Of a DNA stretch of 54,359 bases, positions 1,739 to 29,717 are shown one piece after another. The notes under the pieces were generated by a model. That model was given only the letters and a program-made list of their open reading frames with translations, did no database searches and had not been told where the DNA came from. Position 1 is the stretch's first letter, and every line of letters starts with the position of its first letter. The position numbers and the translations under genes are program-made. Origin of the DNA: a virus (taxonomy: Duplodnaviria; Caudoviricetes); IMG/VR virus record IMGVR_UViG_3300037761_000240, positions 1 through 54,359 of that record; one strand, 5' to 3'.

Positions 1739-2415
1739 AGAAATCCTTTCCGAATGCCGTTGAGCACTGCTCTGACGGACTCTCGATGAGGCTGGTCCGG
1801 CAGTACGGTCGTGATGATCGCCGTTCGTGTCAGTTCGGCCTCTCGACGATAGACCTCCAGCATCTGCTCGCTGGTCATGTCGTCGAAGTCCCAGTAGATC
1901 TGGGGGTCCGGGACGCGCAGGGTCAGCTCGCCGGTCTCCAGCAGCTCTCGACCCTGGCGAAGCAGTCGGAGCATGTGACGACCGTGTTTGGCCGTCCGTT
2001 TCCGTGTGTCGGCCGAGAATGATCCGTCGCCACGACTTTCCAGCTTGCGCGCCTGTGCCAGCGCGTACCCGAGATAGGCGTTGGCGACCGCGTGGGAGGA
2101 CAGGAAGCCGGTTCGGAAATCGATCAGCCACTGACCGGCCCAGTTCTTGAACAGGGGGCGCTCGACCCAGAGCAGTTCGGTAATCGTCGGGTTGCCCTTC
2201 AGCGCGAGCCGACAGAACTTGCCGACCTCGTGCATTGTCGAGTCAGGACCGGTGGTGACATGGGTCTCGCGGTGCTTGGACCAGTCGAGACCGGCGACCT
2301 CCAGCGTTGGTGCAGCATAGACGCCCAGCCGGTCGACATCAGAGCCTTCACGGTCGAGACCGTAGGCGGTCGAGCCGACCACAGCCTCCAGAATGACGAC
2401 GTTCTCGTCCACCAT
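1735..2415 (-). CDS. Pol-beta superfamily nucleotidyltransferase (RlaP/Nuc-transf type)
   Basis: GSTAYGL...SDVD motif, KGNPTITELLW, KHGRHMLRLL; sits between RNA ligase and Pnkp. Confidence 0.85.
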   Translation of the reverse strand: MVDENVVILEAVVGSTAYGLDREGSDVDRLGVYAAPTLEVAGLDWSKHRETHVTTGPDSTMHEVGKFCRLALKGNPTITELLWVERPLFKNWAGQWLIDFRTGFLSSHAVANAYLGYALAQARKLESRGDGSFSADTRKRTAKHGRHMLRLLRQGRELLETGELTLRVPDPQIYWDFDDMTSEQMLEVYRREAELTRTAIITTVLPDQPHRESVRAVLNGIRKGFL

Positions 2416-3521
2416 CAGGCCACATCCTCGGACTGCTCGAACGGCCGTGTCGCCCCCGAGGGCTTCAGCGACTTCCAGATCATCGGCAAGATGTCCCGGC
2501 CGTCGAGCAGGGAGAAGACACAGGCGAGAACCAACCGGTCCTCGATCTTGCTCGTGGCCAACAGCGCGAACGACTTCCGGTCGGTCGCCGACTCGAAGAT
2601 GTGGGCGTATTCCCGGTGAGCCTGGTGGGCGATCCGGCTCTGTCGGGCAAGCAGGTCATCGTGCACGCCTCGGGTCCAGGAGTACAGCTCGTCGGGCAGG
2701 GATCCCAGCAGCTCGTTGAGCACGCCGTAGCCCTCGTAACCCTGCTCCCAGACCACGCGCTCGTTCAGCCCGGTCACGATCTTGTGCAGGGCCACGTAGT
2801 CAGCCTGCTTGATTTTCACCAGTTTGGGCGATTCCAGGTAGCGCACGACCAGGCCCTCGGCGTTGGGTCGGACTGGAGCGTGGAGCGCCTCGGTCAAGGT
2901 CATGTATGTGAGCACCTCAGCCTTAGGGCCGGGCCAGTTCCAACCTTCCGGGCCGGCCATCTCACCGGTCTCGATGTTGACGGCGCCGAGCAGGATCAGG
3001 TCGTCCTGCTTCCCATAGTCGAGCACGATCCGGTTCTCGGGGTAGACGATCTCGAACAGGAAGGTCCAGTTCCGGTTCGGCTCCCACCAAGCCTTGTAAC
3101 GGCTCTGCCAGACCGTGGTGGCGTGAATGGCCTGATCGGAGGTGAACGAGCCTCGGGTGGCGACGATGTACTTGCCCTTGCCGATGGGCACCAGGATGCC
3201 AAGCGAGCCGTCGGCCTTGTCGGTGACCTCGACCGGAGCGGCCATGTCCAGCTCGCCGGCCATCGGGTCGCCGTAGTTGAAGAACTTCGACCAGGGCCGA
3301 GCGACGACGTGGCCAGTGGGGACGTGCTCGACCAGGCCGCGACAAATCCGGACCGCCGGGTTGGCCAGAGCTTCCGGCGTGTAAGAAGCGACCTTCGAGT
3401 AGTTGAAGATCAACAGCGGCATCGTCGGGTGCTCGCGCACGTTGATCCAGCCCGCCTCGCGGGCGGCCATGAACTCGCCGAAGTCGACCAGGTCGAGCAG
3501 CCGGGGGTAGATCGGGTTCAC
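2415..3521 (-). CDS. RNA ligase (T4 Rnl1-like)
   Basis: IFNYS, CRGL, KFFN, motif I KADGSL, ATRGSF, FEIV, EGLV, KIK. Confidence 0.92.
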   Translation of the reverse strand: MNPIYPRLLDLVDFGEFMAAREAGWINVREHPTMPLLIFNYSKVASYTPEALANPAVRICRGLVEHVPTGHVVARPWSKFFNYGDPMAGELDMAAPVEVTDKADGSLGILVPIGKGKYIVATRGSFTSDQAIHATTVWQSRYKAWWEPNRNWTFLFEIVYPENRIVLDYGKQDDLILLGAVNIETGEMAGPEGWNWPGPKAEVLTYMTLTEALHAPVRPNAEGLVVRYLESPKLVKIKQADYVALHKIVTGLNERVVWEQGYEGYGVLNELLGSLPDELYSWTRGVHDDLLARQSRIAHQAHREYAHIFESATDRKSFALLATSKIEDRLVLACVFSLLDGRDILPMIWKSLKPSGATRPFEQSEDVA

Positions 3522-8562: not shown

Positions 8563-9207
8563 TCAGTGTCGGAAGTCTTCCGTCTTGATCTTGACCATGA
8601 TCCGCTCTCCGCCCCGGGTGAGCAGCCCGCATTCGGGCACGCCGACGAGACCTTCGACCTGGAAGCTCTCGTGGAGTGCCCAAGATGACGTCATGCCGTC
8701 TCGAACTCTCTCGATCGCGTCAACGAGGGTGGCGTCGACCAGACGCTGTGGCACCGTCTCGATGTTGAAACCGGAGGCCACCTCCTCGATTGAGGGGCGT
8801 CGCAGCCACCACTGCTCGATCAGGACGTCGAACAGGATGAAGTCCACCCCGTCGGCCTTGTACCGCCCGCCGTTCTTCTGGATGCCGGCGCCATAGCCCT
8901 CTCCGAACAGAGTGACCGGGTCCGCTCCGAACTTCTGCTCGAACAGCTCCTCGGGGAACAGCTCGATCAGCCGCTGGACCAGCGTGGCCGGGATCTGGGC
9001 GTTGTCGGTTCGGCCGCCGAAGGCGACTTTGTGGCCGTCCCAGTGCACTCGGATGTTGGTGCCGTCGACCTTCTCGGTGAAGGCCCACGGAACGTCCTGG
9101 AGTATCTCCAGCTCGCGCGAGGACCAGGTGTCCAGGTCGAACCTGTTTCGCCGAGGTCCCTCGGTGAAGCGCTTGAACGGGCTGGGGATCTTGGGGTAGG
9201 TCTGCAT
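8563..9207 (-). CDS. small RNA ligase-family nucleotidyltransferase (Rnl2-like)
   Basis: YPKI, TEKVDGTN, FGEGYG, FILFDV, EGLV, KIK motifs. Confidence 0.85.
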   Translation of the reverse strand: MQTYPKIPSPFKRFTEGPRRNRFDLDTWSSRELEILQDVPWAFTEKVDGTNIRVHWDGHKVAFGGRTDNAQIPATLVQRLIELFPEELFEQKFGADPVTLFGEGYGAGIQKNGGRYKADGVDFILFDVLIEQWWLRRPSIEEVASGFNIETVPQRLVDATLVDAIERVRDGMTSSWALHESFQVEGLVGVPECGLLTRGGERIMVKIKTEDFRH

Positions 9208-26797: not shown

Positions 26798-27430
26798 ATG
26801 GACCTGCCGACGTTCGTCATGGACAAGAAGATGGCCGAGGCAAGGCTGGCCGCCTACGAGGGGCTGCTCGACGAGCAGCGGACCGCCGAGGATGAGCAGA
26901 TCAAGCGCGGGTACCGCTCGGCCGCCAAGGGCTTCCCGGTGCTGCGGCTGTCCGAGACGATCGCGTCCGGCGGCTACTTCGACAGCGGCCTGCCGAAGAT
27001 CGCCATCGCCCGCGCCGACGCCAAGCTCTGCATCGTCGAACGAGACACCAACTGGCGGAGCAATCCCGAGCACGACTTCGTCTTCTGCGACGACGAGGCA
27101 CGGGAGAATCGGGGTGCGCTGATCGGGCAGCACACCGTGCGGGTCACGGTGCCGTTCGTCGAGCCGCGAGCGACCACGATGGCGGGTCGACTGCGGCTCG
27201 GTCAGACCATCGTCCCGATCATCCCGCCCGAGCTGCGCCCGAAGCCTCGCCGGATGCGAGGGTTCCACATCCTGTTCGAGGTCGAGGAATGGAAGCCGCT
27301 GCGGCGACGCGGCGGCGCGGTCCCCGGCGACCCGGCACTGCTGCGCCACATCGGCGGCGACCTGTGGTCGGTGGTCGGGGTCTGGGACCTGACCGACTTG
27401 GAGCGCGCGGTCCTGTCGGGTCGTGCGTGA
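26798..27430 (+). CDS. hypothetical protein
   Basis: GAGAGGA RBS; VP.IPP..RP, HILFEVE.W, DPALL.H.GGDLW.V...WDLT.LER. Confidence 0.75.
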   Translation: MDLPTFVMDKKMAEARLAAYEGLLDEQRTAEDEQIKRGYRSAAKGFPVLRLSETIASGGYFDSGLPKIAIARADAKLCIVERDTNWRSNPEHDFVFCDDEARENRGALIGQHTVRVTVPFVEPRATTMAGRLRLGQTIVPIIPPELRPKPRRMRGFHILFEVEEWKPLRRRGGAVPGDPALLRHIGGDLWSVVGVWDLTDLERAVLSGRA

Positions 27431-27548
27431 TGGTCGAGACTCCGAAGCCGAAGTCCTCGGTGCAGAAAGGTGTCGACAAGGCCATCGAGGACGGTCAGAC
27501 CAGCGACACCAACAGGGACACCGAACGTCCGAAACCGAGCAACGGCAA

Positions 27549-27947
27549 GTGAAGATTCGCAACTGCCGGCGCTGCGGCTGGACGACTCTGGACGGTCCGA
27601 CCTTCCGAGCCCGACCGGACGAGCGTGGAGAGCACCGCAGGTACAGCGGCCGAGGGCTGTGCACCACCTGCTACGAAGCCGAGCGCCGCAACGGCGACCT
27701 CGACCGGTGGCCGCGTGTCAACTGGCGCACTGACGATCTGCTCGACGAGTGGGCCCTGTTGCGCAGTGACGGGGTGGTCGACATCATCGAGGCTGCACAG
27801 CGGATCGGAGTGAGTCCACACGCATTGGATCGGGCTCTGCACCGGGCCACCGCTGCCGGCGACGACCGAGGCCGGCACATCGGCTGCCGACGACTGGATC
27901 ATCTCAGGACTCGAAGTGACTTGACAACCATGGCGGCAGGGGTGTAG
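27549..27947 (+). CDS. zinc-ribbon + HTH protein
   Basis: CRRC...RGLCTTCY, AAQRIGVS..AL.RAL. Confidence 0.65.
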   Translation: MKIRNCRRCGWTTLDGPTFRARPDERGEHRRYSGRGLCTTCYEAERRNGDLDRWPRVNWRTDDLLDEWALLRSDGVVDIIEAAQRIGVSPHALDRALHRATAAGDDRGRHIGCRRLDHLRTRSDLTTMAAGV

Positions 27948-27950
27948 GCA
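27921..27950 (+). promoter_or_regulatory. putative promoter for the tRNA-like operon
   Basis: perfect TTGACA, N18, imperfect -10 TAGGCA, about 24 nt upstream of the first tRNA-like gene. Confidence 0.45.
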
Positions 27951-27973
27951 TTACACATACAACTTCAAAGACT

Positions 27974-28046
27974 TCCGTTGTAGCTCAGTGGTAGAGCGCC
28001 CGGCTCTGGTTCCGGGTGGACGCCGGTTCGAGCCCGGTCAGCGGAA
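27974..28046 (+). tRNA. tRNA-like RNA with 8-nt anticodon loop (CUCUGGUU)
   Basis: acceptor TCCGTTG/CAGCGGA, D-arm GCTC-AGTGGTA-GAGC, anticodon stem CCCGG/CCGGG, T-arm GCCGG-TTCGAGC-CCGGT; no encoded CCA. Confidence 0.8.
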
Positions 28047-28052
28047 CAGGGT

Positions 28053-28126
28053 TCCGTTGTAGCTCAGCGGTAGAGCGCTCGGCTCTGTCTTCCGAGTGGA
28101 CGCCGGTTCGAGCCCGGTCAGCGGAA
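28053..28126 (+). tRNA. tRNA-like RNA with 9-nt anticodon loop (CUCUGUCUU)
   Basis: paralogue of the first; compensatory anticodon stem CTCGG/CCGAG; acceptor stem extendable by GGGT/ACCC. Confidence 0.8.
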
Positions 28127-28160
28127 CCCGTTCTACAACTTCACACGAAGGGAGACTGCC

Positions 28161-29549
28161 ATGCAGAGCGGCACTCTGGACACACTGTACGAATCGCTGG
28201 ACGGGCGGTATCGCCCGGAAGACGTCGCCGAGTTGATCCTCGAAGGATCGTCTGATCTGACCCCGCGCGAGAAGGTCGTGCTCGAACGAGCGTCCCGACA
28301 CTCTTACCGGCGCAGCTACTACGGATGGTCGTCCATGTCGGACGACTTCACCCGCCCCCCGGGGGCAGGACGACAGCTCGACGCACTGTCCCACTTGTTC
28401 GGTCACCGCCGGGAGAACCTGGTCGAAGCCGAGTCGGACCCGGCCAAGCTGAACCAGTTGGTCAGCTCCGCAGGCGCCACCATCGACCGGCTCCCCGAGC
28501 ACATGGACTTCAAGGCCGACCGACTGAACCGTACCGAACGGACGCTGCACGGGATTGAGATCTCCAAGCGTCAGTACAACCGACGGTTCCGGCTGCTCAC
28601 CCGGCTGGCCCGTAAGATCGGCACCCTGGACGTCGAGCTGCGCAAGCGTGAGCTGATGCTGGTCGGTCGCTCAGGCTTGGCCGCCGACATCACCCGCAAG
28701 CGGTTCGGCCAGGACATTTTCGCGGCCCGGTTCATCGCCTACTTCGTGGCCCGCAAGAACCTACGCCGGATGTTCTCCCTTCAGGGCAAGGAGAACCCGT
28801 ACGACGAGGTCGCCGAGGCGCTGTTCCGGCGTTGTCTGACCGAAGACGGCACCGACTGGTGGATGATCTCCCGCGTCTACCCGACGCCGGAGGTCATCGC
28901 CAAGCTGACTGACGCCGAACGTGGTGAGCTGATGGGCCGCTGGTCGGTACTGATGCGCCGCGCGGCCGACATCTTGGCTGCGGTCTGGGACCCCTCGGTA
29001 GACCGGAAAACCATGATCGTCAAGCGCGGGATGGACTCGTCCACCTGGAACACCGTCGCGCAGGCGTACAACACTGCCCGGGCCGGCTGGATCAACACCC
29101 TGTCGGCCTCCGGTGCGCTGGGGCTGCTGGACGTGGCCTGCCCGGGCAAGGTGATGCGGTTGATGGCCGCCGATCTGGCCTACTGGCACAAGTCTACCGG
29201 CTCAGACGTGGACCCGAACACCGGAGTCTGGGCCGAGCTGCCGCTGCCTTGGGACGTGCTGAACGGCACCGTCGAGAGCACTCGCCGGCAAGTCGCCGAA
29301 GCCTGTGTGCGCAGCGGGCTCGACCCGCGTAAGAGCGGCTGGACCGACTCCCGGGCGACCGGGGCGGTGGCGGTGTTCAAGCCAACACCGGAGCTGGTGC
29401 ACGGCGTGAGCGTGGTCGACCCGGTCTGGGCCGGACTGCTGCGCCGGGCCGGAGTGTTCTCCGGCAAGCACCTGACCCGCCACGCCGAGGGTGTGTCGAT
29501 TCCGGACGGAGTGGTCACCAGCGAGCTGCCGACGCGGACCAATGTCTGA
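28161..29549 (+). CDS. 462-aa protein of unknown function adjacent to the tRNA-like RNAs
   Basis: AAGGGAG RBS 34 nt after the second RNA; Arg-rich, predicted helical; no catalytic motif recognised. Confidence 0.85.
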   Translation: MQSGTLDTLYESLDGRYRPEDVAELILEGSSDLTPREKVVLERASRHSYRRSYYGWSSMSDDFTRPPGAGRQLDALSHLFGHRRENLVEAESDPAKLNQLVSSAGATIDRLPEHMDFKADRLNRTERTLHGIEISKRQYNRRFRLLTRLARKIGTLDVELRKRELMLVGRSGLAADITRKRFGQDIFAARFIAYFVARKNLRRMFSLQGKENPYDEVAEALFRRCLTEDGTDWWMISRVYPTPEVIAKLTDAERGELMGRWSVLMRRAADILAAVWDPSVDRKTMIVKRGMDSSTWNTVAQAYNTARAGWINTLSASGALGLLDVACPGKVMRLMAADLAYWHKSTGSDVDPNTGVWAELPLPWDVLNGTVESTRRQVAEACVRSGLDPRKSGWTDSRATGAVAVFKPTPELVHGVSVVDPVWAGLLRRAGVFSGKHLTRHAEGVSIPDGVVTSELPTRTNV

Positions 29550-29717
29550 CTCGGCCGTGCCCAATGTCACTTCCAGGTCTTGCTCGGGGGCTGTGATGGC
29601 CTCCGAGCAAGACCTGGAAGTGACCAGGCATCTTCGAGACCATCTGACCGACGGCCGCTGGCACGACGACTGCAAGTACTGCCTGCGGCGGCGTCTCCAC
29701 GGAGGGACTGGGCTGTG

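Follow-up and report, generated by a model that had tools for sequence, protein, structure and literature searches.

The DNA examined here, referred to as the window, is the 54,359-bp virus record IMGVR_UViG_3300037761_000240 at its full length, a genome estimated to be 72% complete with about 65% G+C. It encodes a family A-type DNA polymerase and a primase-helicase, and its DNA is present in sediment metagenomes. The subject of this analysis is a compact unit within the window. It consists of two nearly identical tRNA-like RNA genes in tandem and a large gene encoding an arginine-rich protein of 462 amino acids (aa), whose ATG lies 34 nucleotides (nt) past the end of the second cloverleaf at 28126 (Table 1). 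The protein has no known family, and RNAs of the same kind recur beside its relatives in phages and bacteria. The protein and the RNAs very probably constitute one functional unit, and most of the RNAs are probably not ordinary decoders.

A sequence-only reading of the window had reported two cloverleaves with canonical D and T arms, anticodon loops of 8 and 9 nt, no encoded CCA, a compensatory change in the anticodon stem and a short distance to an arginine-rich gene. ARAGORN, the Rfam tRNA model, an arm-by-arm parse and direct reading all agree with this description. The cloverleaf cores extend over 27974-28046 (copy 1) and 28053-28126 (copy 2). They score 58.2 and 56.3 bits with Rfam tRNA (RF00005; gathering score 29), and 90.9 and 85.8 bits with R1, a model of the RNA family described below. 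The acceptor (UCCGUUG/CAGCGGA), D (GCUC/GAGC) and T (GCCGG-UUCGAGC-CCGGU) arms are common to both copies. The anticodon stem is CCCGG/CCGGG in copy 1 and CUCGG/CCGAG in copy 2, the exchanged pair being compensated, and the loops are CUCUGGUU (8 nt, 28004-28011) and CUCUGUCUU (9 nt, 28083-28091). ARAGORN names copy 1 (27974-28047) tRNA-??? with a four-base anticodon 'ctgg' and copy 2 (28052-28129) 'tRNA-Thr tgt', the latter in the enlarged loop. The letters that follow the copies are CAG and CCC, respectively. As had also been noticed, the acceptor stem of copy 2 can be extended by 4 base pairs (bp), GGGU at 28049-28052 pairing with ACCC at 28126-29, which brings it to 11 bp (28049-28059 with 28119-28129). 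Two features had been missed. One is an eighth acceptor pair between positions -1 and 73, which is U:A in both copies (in copy 1, U-1 at 27973 with A73 at 28046). The other is a constant C-U-C at the start of the anticodon loop.

Table 1. Positions of the unit and adjoining features in the window.
Feature	Position	Strand	Basis
TTGACA, possible -35 hexamer	27921..27926	+	Direct reading; within 3' end of upstream HNH-like open reading frame (ORF) 27423-27947
tRNA-like RNA 1, including U-1	27973..28046	+	ARAGORN, Rfam tRNA, family model R1, arm parse
tRNA-like RNA 2, including extended stem	28049..28129	+	ARAGORN 28052-28129, Rfam tRNA, R1
Ribosome-binding site GGGAG	28150..28154	+	Direct reading; ATG 6 nt further
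Gene of 462-aa basic all-alpha-helical protein, unnamed family	28161..29549	+	ORF list, relatives, alignment A1, AlphaFold2
Inverted repeat, 26-nt arms	29566..29624	+	Repeat search; arms 29566-29591 / 29599-29624

The sequence-only reading had proposed that the RNAs and the protein belong together, and had asked whether tRNA-like elements consistently lie upstream of homologues of the gene. Loci were gathered by protein similarity alone from 4 genomic, 17 viral and the best 80 of 270 metagenomic sequences; after removal of 8 duplicates there were 96 distinct loci, the window included. In a motif scan 89 of them showed a tRNA-like gene. One of these, L046, was discarded as a false match inside a coding region, and L027 and L029 were added on the strength of a variant found by ARAGORN and R1 (55-56 bits). 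In total, one to four same-strand tRNA-like genes adjoin the homologue in 90/96 loci, the nearest copy at a median distance of 45 nt. In the six remaining loci the contig stops 1-314 nt downstream of the gene. No other protein neighbour is conserved in an all-against-all comparison of every ORF in the loci. These results suggest that protein and RNAs do belong together. The proposed adjacency therefore stands. The upstream layout is the rarer one: the RNAs lie downstream only in 78 loci, upstream only in 11 (among them the window and L030-L032, its closest relatives in the set) and on both sides in one. Among the 85 loci resolved by a strict arm-by-arm parser, 38 have one copy, 41 two, four three and two four.

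The RNAs were compared in a family alignment of 131 sequences (A2), and loop statistics were compiled for 133 unique RNAs. Covariation was observed in 15/21 pairs of A2, with 696 doubly changed cells vs 176 in shuffles. Cells are paired in 99.3% of A2, a figure partly built in because the parser required most pairs. The -1:73 pair was not a parser criterion. It is formed in 107/131 sequences, by all four Watson-Crick types, compared with 56 +/- 4.8 in shuffles (maximum 71 in 1000), and in 7/19 ordinary neighbouring tRNAs. With position -1 paired to 73 the acceptor stem has eight pairs and the discriminator is not free. CCA is encoded in 11/133 family RNAs vs 6/19 ordinary neighbours. The variable region has 5 nt in most RNAs, for example UGGAC in 75/133.

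The anticodon arm is divided between a constant and a variable part. Its lower stem is G-C-rich and its loop starts C-U-C (C-A-C in 5 members), a start that the family definition included. GGC(U/A)C at the 5' side of the loop is found in 141/156 same-strand tRNAs called by ARAGORN within 250 nt of the gene, but in only 7/81 of those more than 400 nt away in the same loci. The 3' half-loop varies in length and letters. Loops of 7 nt number 57, of 8 nt 51, of 9 nt 24 and of 6 nt one, so that 76 of the 133 are not 7 nt long; the 75 enlarged loops are spread across divergent lineages. There are 76 distinct loops, some of which recur on unrelated scaffolds (CUCUUGGA 11 times, CUCUUAA 9 times, CUCUGGA 8 times). 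U is the commonest base of the variable half-loop and C the rarest (U 279, G 146, A 135, C 61), and a pyrimidine occupies position 37 in 12/57 seven-nt loops. Three possible partners of the loops were sought by eye. Loops within one locus show no mutual complementarity, the window loops show no convincing complementarity to the gene's ribosome site, and a T-box-like contact with CCA was dropped because the base after UGG does not track the discriminator. The idea that the anticodon arm is the core site of a recombinase was also dropped, as it leaves the covariation in the other arms unexplained.

R1 distinguishes the family from host tRNAs. The best match was the copy beside the gene in 4/4 host genomes (94.4, 91.1, 85.0 and 81.6 bits), while the tRNAs of those genomes score at most 78.3 bits, the next best being tRNAs for Asn, Val, Thr and Met. 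In Asticcacaulis a canonical CCA-ended tRNA-Lys(CUU) of the host lies about 11 kb from the unit; the RNA of that unit is therefore an extra. Some members are unusual. The second RNA of the Micromonospora unit (L002 7475-7546) has the loop CUAGGGA, which breaks the C-U-C rule. It scores 80.5 bits with R1 and is called 'tRNA-Pro AGG', an anticodon unexpected in bacteria. Two genomes from the family of the Micromonospora carrier have homologues 37-38% identical and retain a degenerate tRNA-like RNA (L011 1363-1441, minus strand; L012 2593-2671) with an 11-nt loop, CUCACGACCUU, and a weakened T loop; the L011 homologue match holds one in-frame TGA.

Comparison of related loci revealed how the RNA evolves. 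Four locus pairs have letter-identical 65-nt RNA bodies with different loops (e.g. CUCGUAU vs CUCUAGA), and the adjoining genes in these pairs are only 70.7-79.2% identical in DNA. Identical bodies beside diverged genes indicate very strong purifying selection on the body, including the acceptor stem, and not on the 3' half-loop. Together with the enlarged loops in divergent lineages, this argues strongly against recent decay of ordinary tRNAs, a doubt that the sequence-only reading had raised about itself. The homologue in L005 (6001-6848) is broken, with two frames that match only residues 4-153 and 329-439. Its tRNA-like RNA, with loop CUCUUGGA, is intact and has the highest model score of all, 94.4 bits.

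Contigs from RNA libraries hint that the tRNA-likes and the gene are expressed in a relative. Three rhizosphere runs of one study yielded contigs with 85-95% similarity to the window, which extend over 27967-28173 (both tRNA-likes and the first bases of the ORF) and over further parts of the ORF. Over window positions 27967-28144 those of runs X12-X14 differ in the loops, copy 1 by a 1-nt deletion and copy 2 by two changes. They also contain a joint described as 'goes back 78', which suggests three tandem tRNA-like copies in the relative vs two in the window.

The 462-aa protein has 10.8% arginine and an isoelectric point (pI) of 9.4, a composition that fits an RNA binder. A word-indexed search found 768 relatives at E<=0.001, many of them in actinomycete chromosomes (Micromonospora, Nonomuraea, Streptosporangium and others), and further relatives occur in a Chthoniobacterales metagenome-assembled genome and in Asticcacaulis. 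An exhaustive search yielded 429 relative clusters at 50% identity. The relatives P0001-P0005 are 79-81% identical, and a 50-member alignment (A1) has the invariant residues R16, S293, W296, N297, N304, K330, W364, W394 and P421. The protein had been said to carry no recognised motif, and family searches bear this out. The window protein matched 0 families in Pfam (E<=0.1), PHROGs, NCBIfam and PADLOC. Between 3 and 50 relatives run against the same libraries had no match, with none relevant in Pfam for 50 members at E<=0.01 and 0 families in PADLOC for 4 members. A profile search found nothing among PDB sequences at E<=1, there was no usable ESM Atlas match, and an INPHARED copy of 50,697 phage records contained no DNA or protein match. 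A search for longer relatives revealed no fused forms; 10 such relatives have no extra Pfam domain except a weak AAA_16 (E 0.0077, below its cut-off).

AlphaFold2 modelled the protein as all-helical with a predicted local distance difference test (pLDDT) score of 92 and a predicted template modelling (pTM) score of 0.88; the N-terminal half (residues 1-245) modelled alone reached pLDDT 94.5. The sequence-only reading had recommended structure prediction plus Foldseek/HHpred. The model is confident but has no convincing solved relative. Foldseek against the PDB gave a best E of 0.33 for the whole model and 0.30 for the N-terminal half. With VIA-align wide the highest Z was 6.0 for the whole model (111 residues, a designed helical bundle) and 6.3 for the N-terminal half (root mean square deviation 3.5 Å, 87 residues). 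Nop56/58, Prp31 and TasH recur in weak Foldseek rows (E 0.3-2.5, template modelling (TM) score at most 0.25). Against Nop-domain proteins VIA gave Z 4.0-6.1 over 62-138 residues, mostly for one helical hairpin, which is below the noise level for helical proteins. Closer comparison of the N-terminal half left only helical hairpins, both of these and of many unrelated proteins; a Nop fold is not claimed. The sole strong structural matches are uncharacterised proteins of giant viruses, from Edafosvirus (A0A3G4ZSE3; E 3e-13, TM 0.63) and Yasminevirus (A0A5K0U9D9; E 2e-10, TM 0.65). Yasminevirus has 70 tRNA genes grouped in islands (PMC11946776). We take these model-based look-alikes only as a lead to a possible tRNA link beyond bacteria.

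The carriers of the gene span at least three phyla as well as phages, and its distribution is patchy. It was found in 3/61 sampled genomes of the Micromonospora carrier's family and in 1/61 of the Chthoniobacterales carrier's order. The unit is often located within large phage tRNA arrays (L016, L017, L031, L057). A mobile element that encodes a resolvase and a DUF5906 primase also carries it, and in L003 it stands beside GmrSD and NERD genes. No integrase consistently adjoins it in the compared loci. The most frequent neighbour is polA, just upstream in 7 loci. In L099, L059, L082, L076 and three others the unit directly follows a full-length polA, and an M3 oligopeptidase gene is near in 5 loci. 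After polA the unit looks like a settled chromosomal gene of one bacterial lineage, not phage cargo.

Other features of the window concern the borders and surroundings of the unit. The TTGACA hexamer ahead of the RNAs had been read as promoter-like. The hexamer is present, but a consensus scan for full sigma-70-like promoters found 0 on the plus strand and 1 on the minus strand, so the promoter is only half supported. In the relative L025 (4770-4990) a promoter of textbook form, TTGACA-17-TATAGT, stands in the same place, directly 5' of two tRNA-likes with 9-nt loops that precede the homologue; both of these RNAs were missed by ARAGORN owing to an unusual D stem. For the upstream ORF 27423-27947 there is a match to an HNH endonuclease PHROG (E 1.8e-9); the ORF is not a conserved neighbour of the unit in the other loci. 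The inverted repeat is 96% complementary with a 7-nt loop and no T run. It begins 17 nt past the stop codon and overlaps the start of a 134-aa ORF; it may be the 3' end of the unit or an operator, and its membership in the unit is uncertain. Elsewhere the window carries genes of RNA repair on the minus strand: Pnkp (kinase and HAD phosphatase, 773-2131), an RlaP nucleotidyltransferase (1735-2415), a T4 Rnl1-type RNA ligase (2415-3521) and a second ligase (8563-9207). With Pnkp, RlaP and two ligases, the phage evidently expects its tRNAs to be cut.

We tentatively favour the reading that a new protein and dedicated, mostly non-decoding tRNA mimics form a two-part unit, which likely acts in a tRNA-centred conflict between phage and host. 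Taken whole, this statement is plausible and stops somewhat short of probable. One protein and 1-4 RNAs would be made from the same strand, probably as one transcript. The RNAs retain all that gives a tRNA its L-shape and differ from working tRNAs in the eighth acceptor pair, the invariant G-C-rich lower anticodon stem with C32-U33-C34, and the free 3' half-loop of 6-9 nt. The protein may recognise the constant features and work with or on its own RNAs, either as a ribonucleoprotein or as an enzyme with its substrate. That most members do not serve as ordinary decoders is argued from the paired discriminator, the fixed C34, the 8-11-nt loops and the pyrimidine at 37. The reasons for placing the unit in conflict are the RNA-repair genes of the phage, an occurrence that is patchy and mobile, and the location of L003 in a defence island. 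The data show the linkage of gene and RNAs, the features of the RNA family, selection on its body and the absence of a known family for the protein; binding, non-decoding and conflict are all three what we infer from these observations. In the specific role that we prefer, though we consider it doubtful, the RNA would imitate an anticodon arm and act as bait or pseudo-substrate towards enzymes that cleave or modify C34-type loops like those of Lys, Gln or Glu tRNAs, and the protein would hold, present or protect it.

Several observations weigh against this reading. As the C-U-C start is part of the family definition, its sole independent test is the ARAGORN comparison of near and far tRNAs. 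Of the 57 seven-nt loops 45 have a purine at position 37, and the next-to-last base is a purine in 43/50 eight-nt loops. Several seven-nt loops are identical to real anticodon loops; the host tRNA-Lys in Asticcacaulis, for instance, has CUCUUAA. The half-loop changes at about the silent-site pace in some pairs: L059, L082 and L099 differ by 1 change at 85-87% gene identity, and the half-loop of L081 and L092 is almost fully replaced at 88%. The half-loop may thus simply be unconstrained rather than specific. Family and fold searches detected no recognisable nuclease, transferase or RNA-binding motif in the protein. The RNA-library contigs may be DNA carry-over, they show no RNA ends, and stretches that they leave uncovered carry no information. 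Finally, many units (L004 and the loci after polA among them) occupy bacterial chromosomes without phage genes close by, which makes a purely anti-defence role unlikely as the whole story.

We considered whether the RNAs are instead specialised decoding tRNAs. With C34 they would decode NNG codons, those with 8-nt loops would take four-base codons or shift the frame by +1, and the protein would be a factor for maturation, modification (for example of the invariant C34 or C32) or charging. Their full tRNA tertiary signature and Rfam tRNA scores of 56-58 bits are what decoders would show. The seven-nt loops resemble those of Lys, Gln, Glu, Met, Pro, Thr and Arg tRNAs, and a purine precedes the last loop base in 44/56 seven-nt loops as it does in the eight-nt loops. 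Location inside phage tRNA arrays fits as well, and so do structural look-alikes in tRNA-rich giant viruses. A phage or mobile element would thereby gain tRNAs that are independent of host U34 modification and escape host anticodon nucleases. Phage tRNAs reportedly evade nucleases through anticodon-loop changes (PMC10264068). The loops and the stem argue the other way. They have 9 or 6 nt in 25/133 RNAs and 11 nt in L011 and L012, the seven-nt set includes the 12 with pyrimidine 37, and position 33 is A in 5 RNAs. Position 34 is invariant while the rest of the 'anticodon' varies, which is unexpected for a set of decoders, and the discriminator is paired in most of the alignment. Single units occur in bacterial chromosomes that already have the matching tRNA, and among tRNA-modifying enzymes and synthetases none is known that the protein resembles. 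In the window, DNA polymerase, primase, Pnkp and the ligases are each encoded by an intact gene that needs no frameshift, although CCAG-type four-base sites were not searched for systematically. We regard specialised decoding as unlikely.

A toxin-antitoxin or abortive-infection system similar to type III, in which the protein would be a toxin against tRNA or translation and the stable tRNA mimic, its enlarged loop uncleavable, a pseudo-substrate inhibitor, appears quite unlikely. Such a system would account for a two-part, self-contained unit with no other conserved neighbour, for the tandem RNA copies, for the sparse occurrence among genomes, and for residence in phages, in the mobile element with resolvase and DUF5906 primase and beside GmrSD and NERD. 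It would also account for L005, which keeps its RNA despite a broken gene. In opposition to this, no toxin family was found in PADLOC or Pfam (ToxN, AbiQ, CptN, TenpN), and the RNAs are mostly 3' of the gene, unlike those of ToxIN. RNAs with the shape of a tRNA should be stable rather than labile. Structural look-alikes from amoebal giant viruses fit poorly, as do the settled units after polA in 7 loci.

The favoured two-part unit of protein and mimics could also be imagined as an RNA-guided effector, with the variable 3' half-loop on a constant tRNA scaffold acting as a very short guide that would pair with the anticodon loop of a host or phage tRNA, or with a codon, and so bring the protein there; we regard this as very unlikely. 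The idea is attractive because the 5' half of the loop is constant and the 3' half variable and stacked, because the many distinct loops include some that recur on unrelated scaffolds, and because one and the same body can bear different loops. With its excess of U and scarcity of C the variable part is not random drift in GC-rich genomes, and Nop56/58, Prp31 and TasH recur among the weak fold matches. Those matches are long helical hairpins, however, with Z 4-6 and TM at most 0.25, below the noise level for helical proteins. No loop partner was found by eye, none being complementary within a locus and UGGN lacking covariation with the discriminator. In addition, 3-6 nt confer little specificity, and the rate of half-loop change in several pairs is compatible with neutrality. 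There is similarly only a slight chance of a programmable version, in which the constant parts (acceptor stem of 8 bp, G-C-rich lower anticodon stem, C32-U33-C34) would be held by the protein, the half-loop would pair with the anticodon loop of a chosen tRNA or with a codon on the ribosome, and the unit would switch off, cut or modify one tRNA species or codon class.

Integration often takes place at tRNA genes, such genes are frequent in phage arrays, and 57/133 loops have normal length, but the notion that the tRNA-likes lack a joint function with the gene, being decaying tRNA genes, integration sites or passengers, is close to refuted, and extremely improbable, given the linkage in 90/96 loci from at least three phyla and phages, an RNA family distinct from host tRNAs, bodies up to 100% conserved beside genes 70-79% identical, covarying arms that include the unselected -1:73 pair, and the lack of a consistently adjacent integrase.

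No description of this pairing of protein and RNA was found in the full-text literature searched. The protein family is large (429 clusters), confidently folded (pLDDT 92) and unnamed, and its fixed RNA partner makes the function directly testable. In the RNA family the tRNA body is kept almost letter-perfect while the code-reading part is freed, as if a natural tRNA had been recruited for another job. Because gene finders call these RNAs tRNA-Lys, -Gln, -Thr or 'undetermined', phage and bacterial tRNA sets are mislabelled. If the unit takes part in a contest over anticodon loops, it would be a new player beside RNA-repair enzymes and nuclease-resistant phage tRNAs. Should the loop prove to be a specificity element, the unit would offer a very small programmable RNA-protein tool, and if the loop were a guide, a minimal RNA-guided system directed against the decoding machinery in phages, bacteria and perhaps giant viruses.

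The unit was compared with known systems in which tRNA-like RNAs have unusual roles. RNA C and RNA D of T4 are stable, non-decoding phage tRNA-like RNAs. Like them, the RNAs of the unit are tRNA-shaped, are found in or near phage tRNA clusters, keep the elbow and would not read codons normally. Unlike RNA C and RNA D, whose anticodon arm is replaced by large inserts or hairpins, they have an intact arm in which only the 3' half-loop varies. We know of no dedicated protein partner for RNAs of the T4 type, whereas the RNAs of the unit adjoin a specific protein gene and their family extends to bacterial chromosomes. Frameshift-suppressor tRNAs (sufD, SufA6, SufB2) and engineered four-base decoders share the extra loop nucleotide and the purine before the last loop base (for SufB2, 10.1101/2020.12.31.424971). 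Those tRNAs are ordinary ones that carry a single mutation and keep a normal discriminator, whereas the unit has loops of 6-9 nt (11 in L011 and L012), a fixed C34, a paired -1:73 and a conserved protein partner. Although ARAGORN reads the 8-nt loop of copy 1 as 'ctgg', its discriminator is paired and the loop of copy 2 has 9 nt. The window RNAs have the RF00005 cloverleaf and lack the 7-nt loop and the free discriminator with CCA of a decoder. The RNA of the unit is not of the T4 type and does not appear to be a plain frameshift suppressor.

An eight-pair acceptor stem marks tRNA-Sec (for SelB and SelA) and tRNA-His for dedicated partners, and the RNAs of the unit share this stem. They have neither the long variable arm nor the 6-bp D stem of tRNA-Sec, nor UCA in register in any loop, and their -1:73 pair is any of four types rather than the G-1:C73 of tRNA-His. 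By any search, moreover, the protein is not a GTPase or a synthetase like the partners of those tRNAs. Type III toxin-antitoxin systems resemble the unit as self-contained, patchy combinations of a protein with tandem small RNAs in phages and mobile elements. In ToxIN the RNA precedes the toxin gene, behind a terminator. The unit differs in that its RNA usually comes after the gene and is a tRNA mimic, not a pseudoknot repeat, and its protein has no similarity to ToxN or AbiQ.

Phage-borne tRNAs with altered anticodon loops reportedly escape host anticodon nucleases (PMC10264068, PMC11555353). They are alike in being phage tRNAs with altered loops where tRNA-cutting defences act, but they are working tRNAs with point changes and are not known to have a partner protein. 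Most loops of the unit, in contrast, seem unfit for normal decoding, and the family extends beyond phages.

The remaining comparison is with Ro60 (Rsr) and its YrlA or Y RNA, the analogy raised, and doubted, by the sequence-only reading. The doubt was justified: neither the window protein nor 50 members have a TROVE domain in Pfam, and the YrlA model (RF02553) scores 25.2 bits vs a gathering score of 69, in a match that straddles the junction of the two copies. YrlA is a tRNA-like module on a Ro-binding stem, whereas the RNA of the unit is a full cloverleaf with an anticodon arm. Nevertheless, in both systems a protein gene adjoins one or more genes for tRNA-like non-coding RNA, in bacteria and some phages, and both are found in a setting of RNA repair or quality control, represented in the window by Pnkp, RlaP and the two ligases. 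Although it has neither the protein domain nor the RNA of that system, it is Ro60-YrlA that the unit most resembles in the way it would work.

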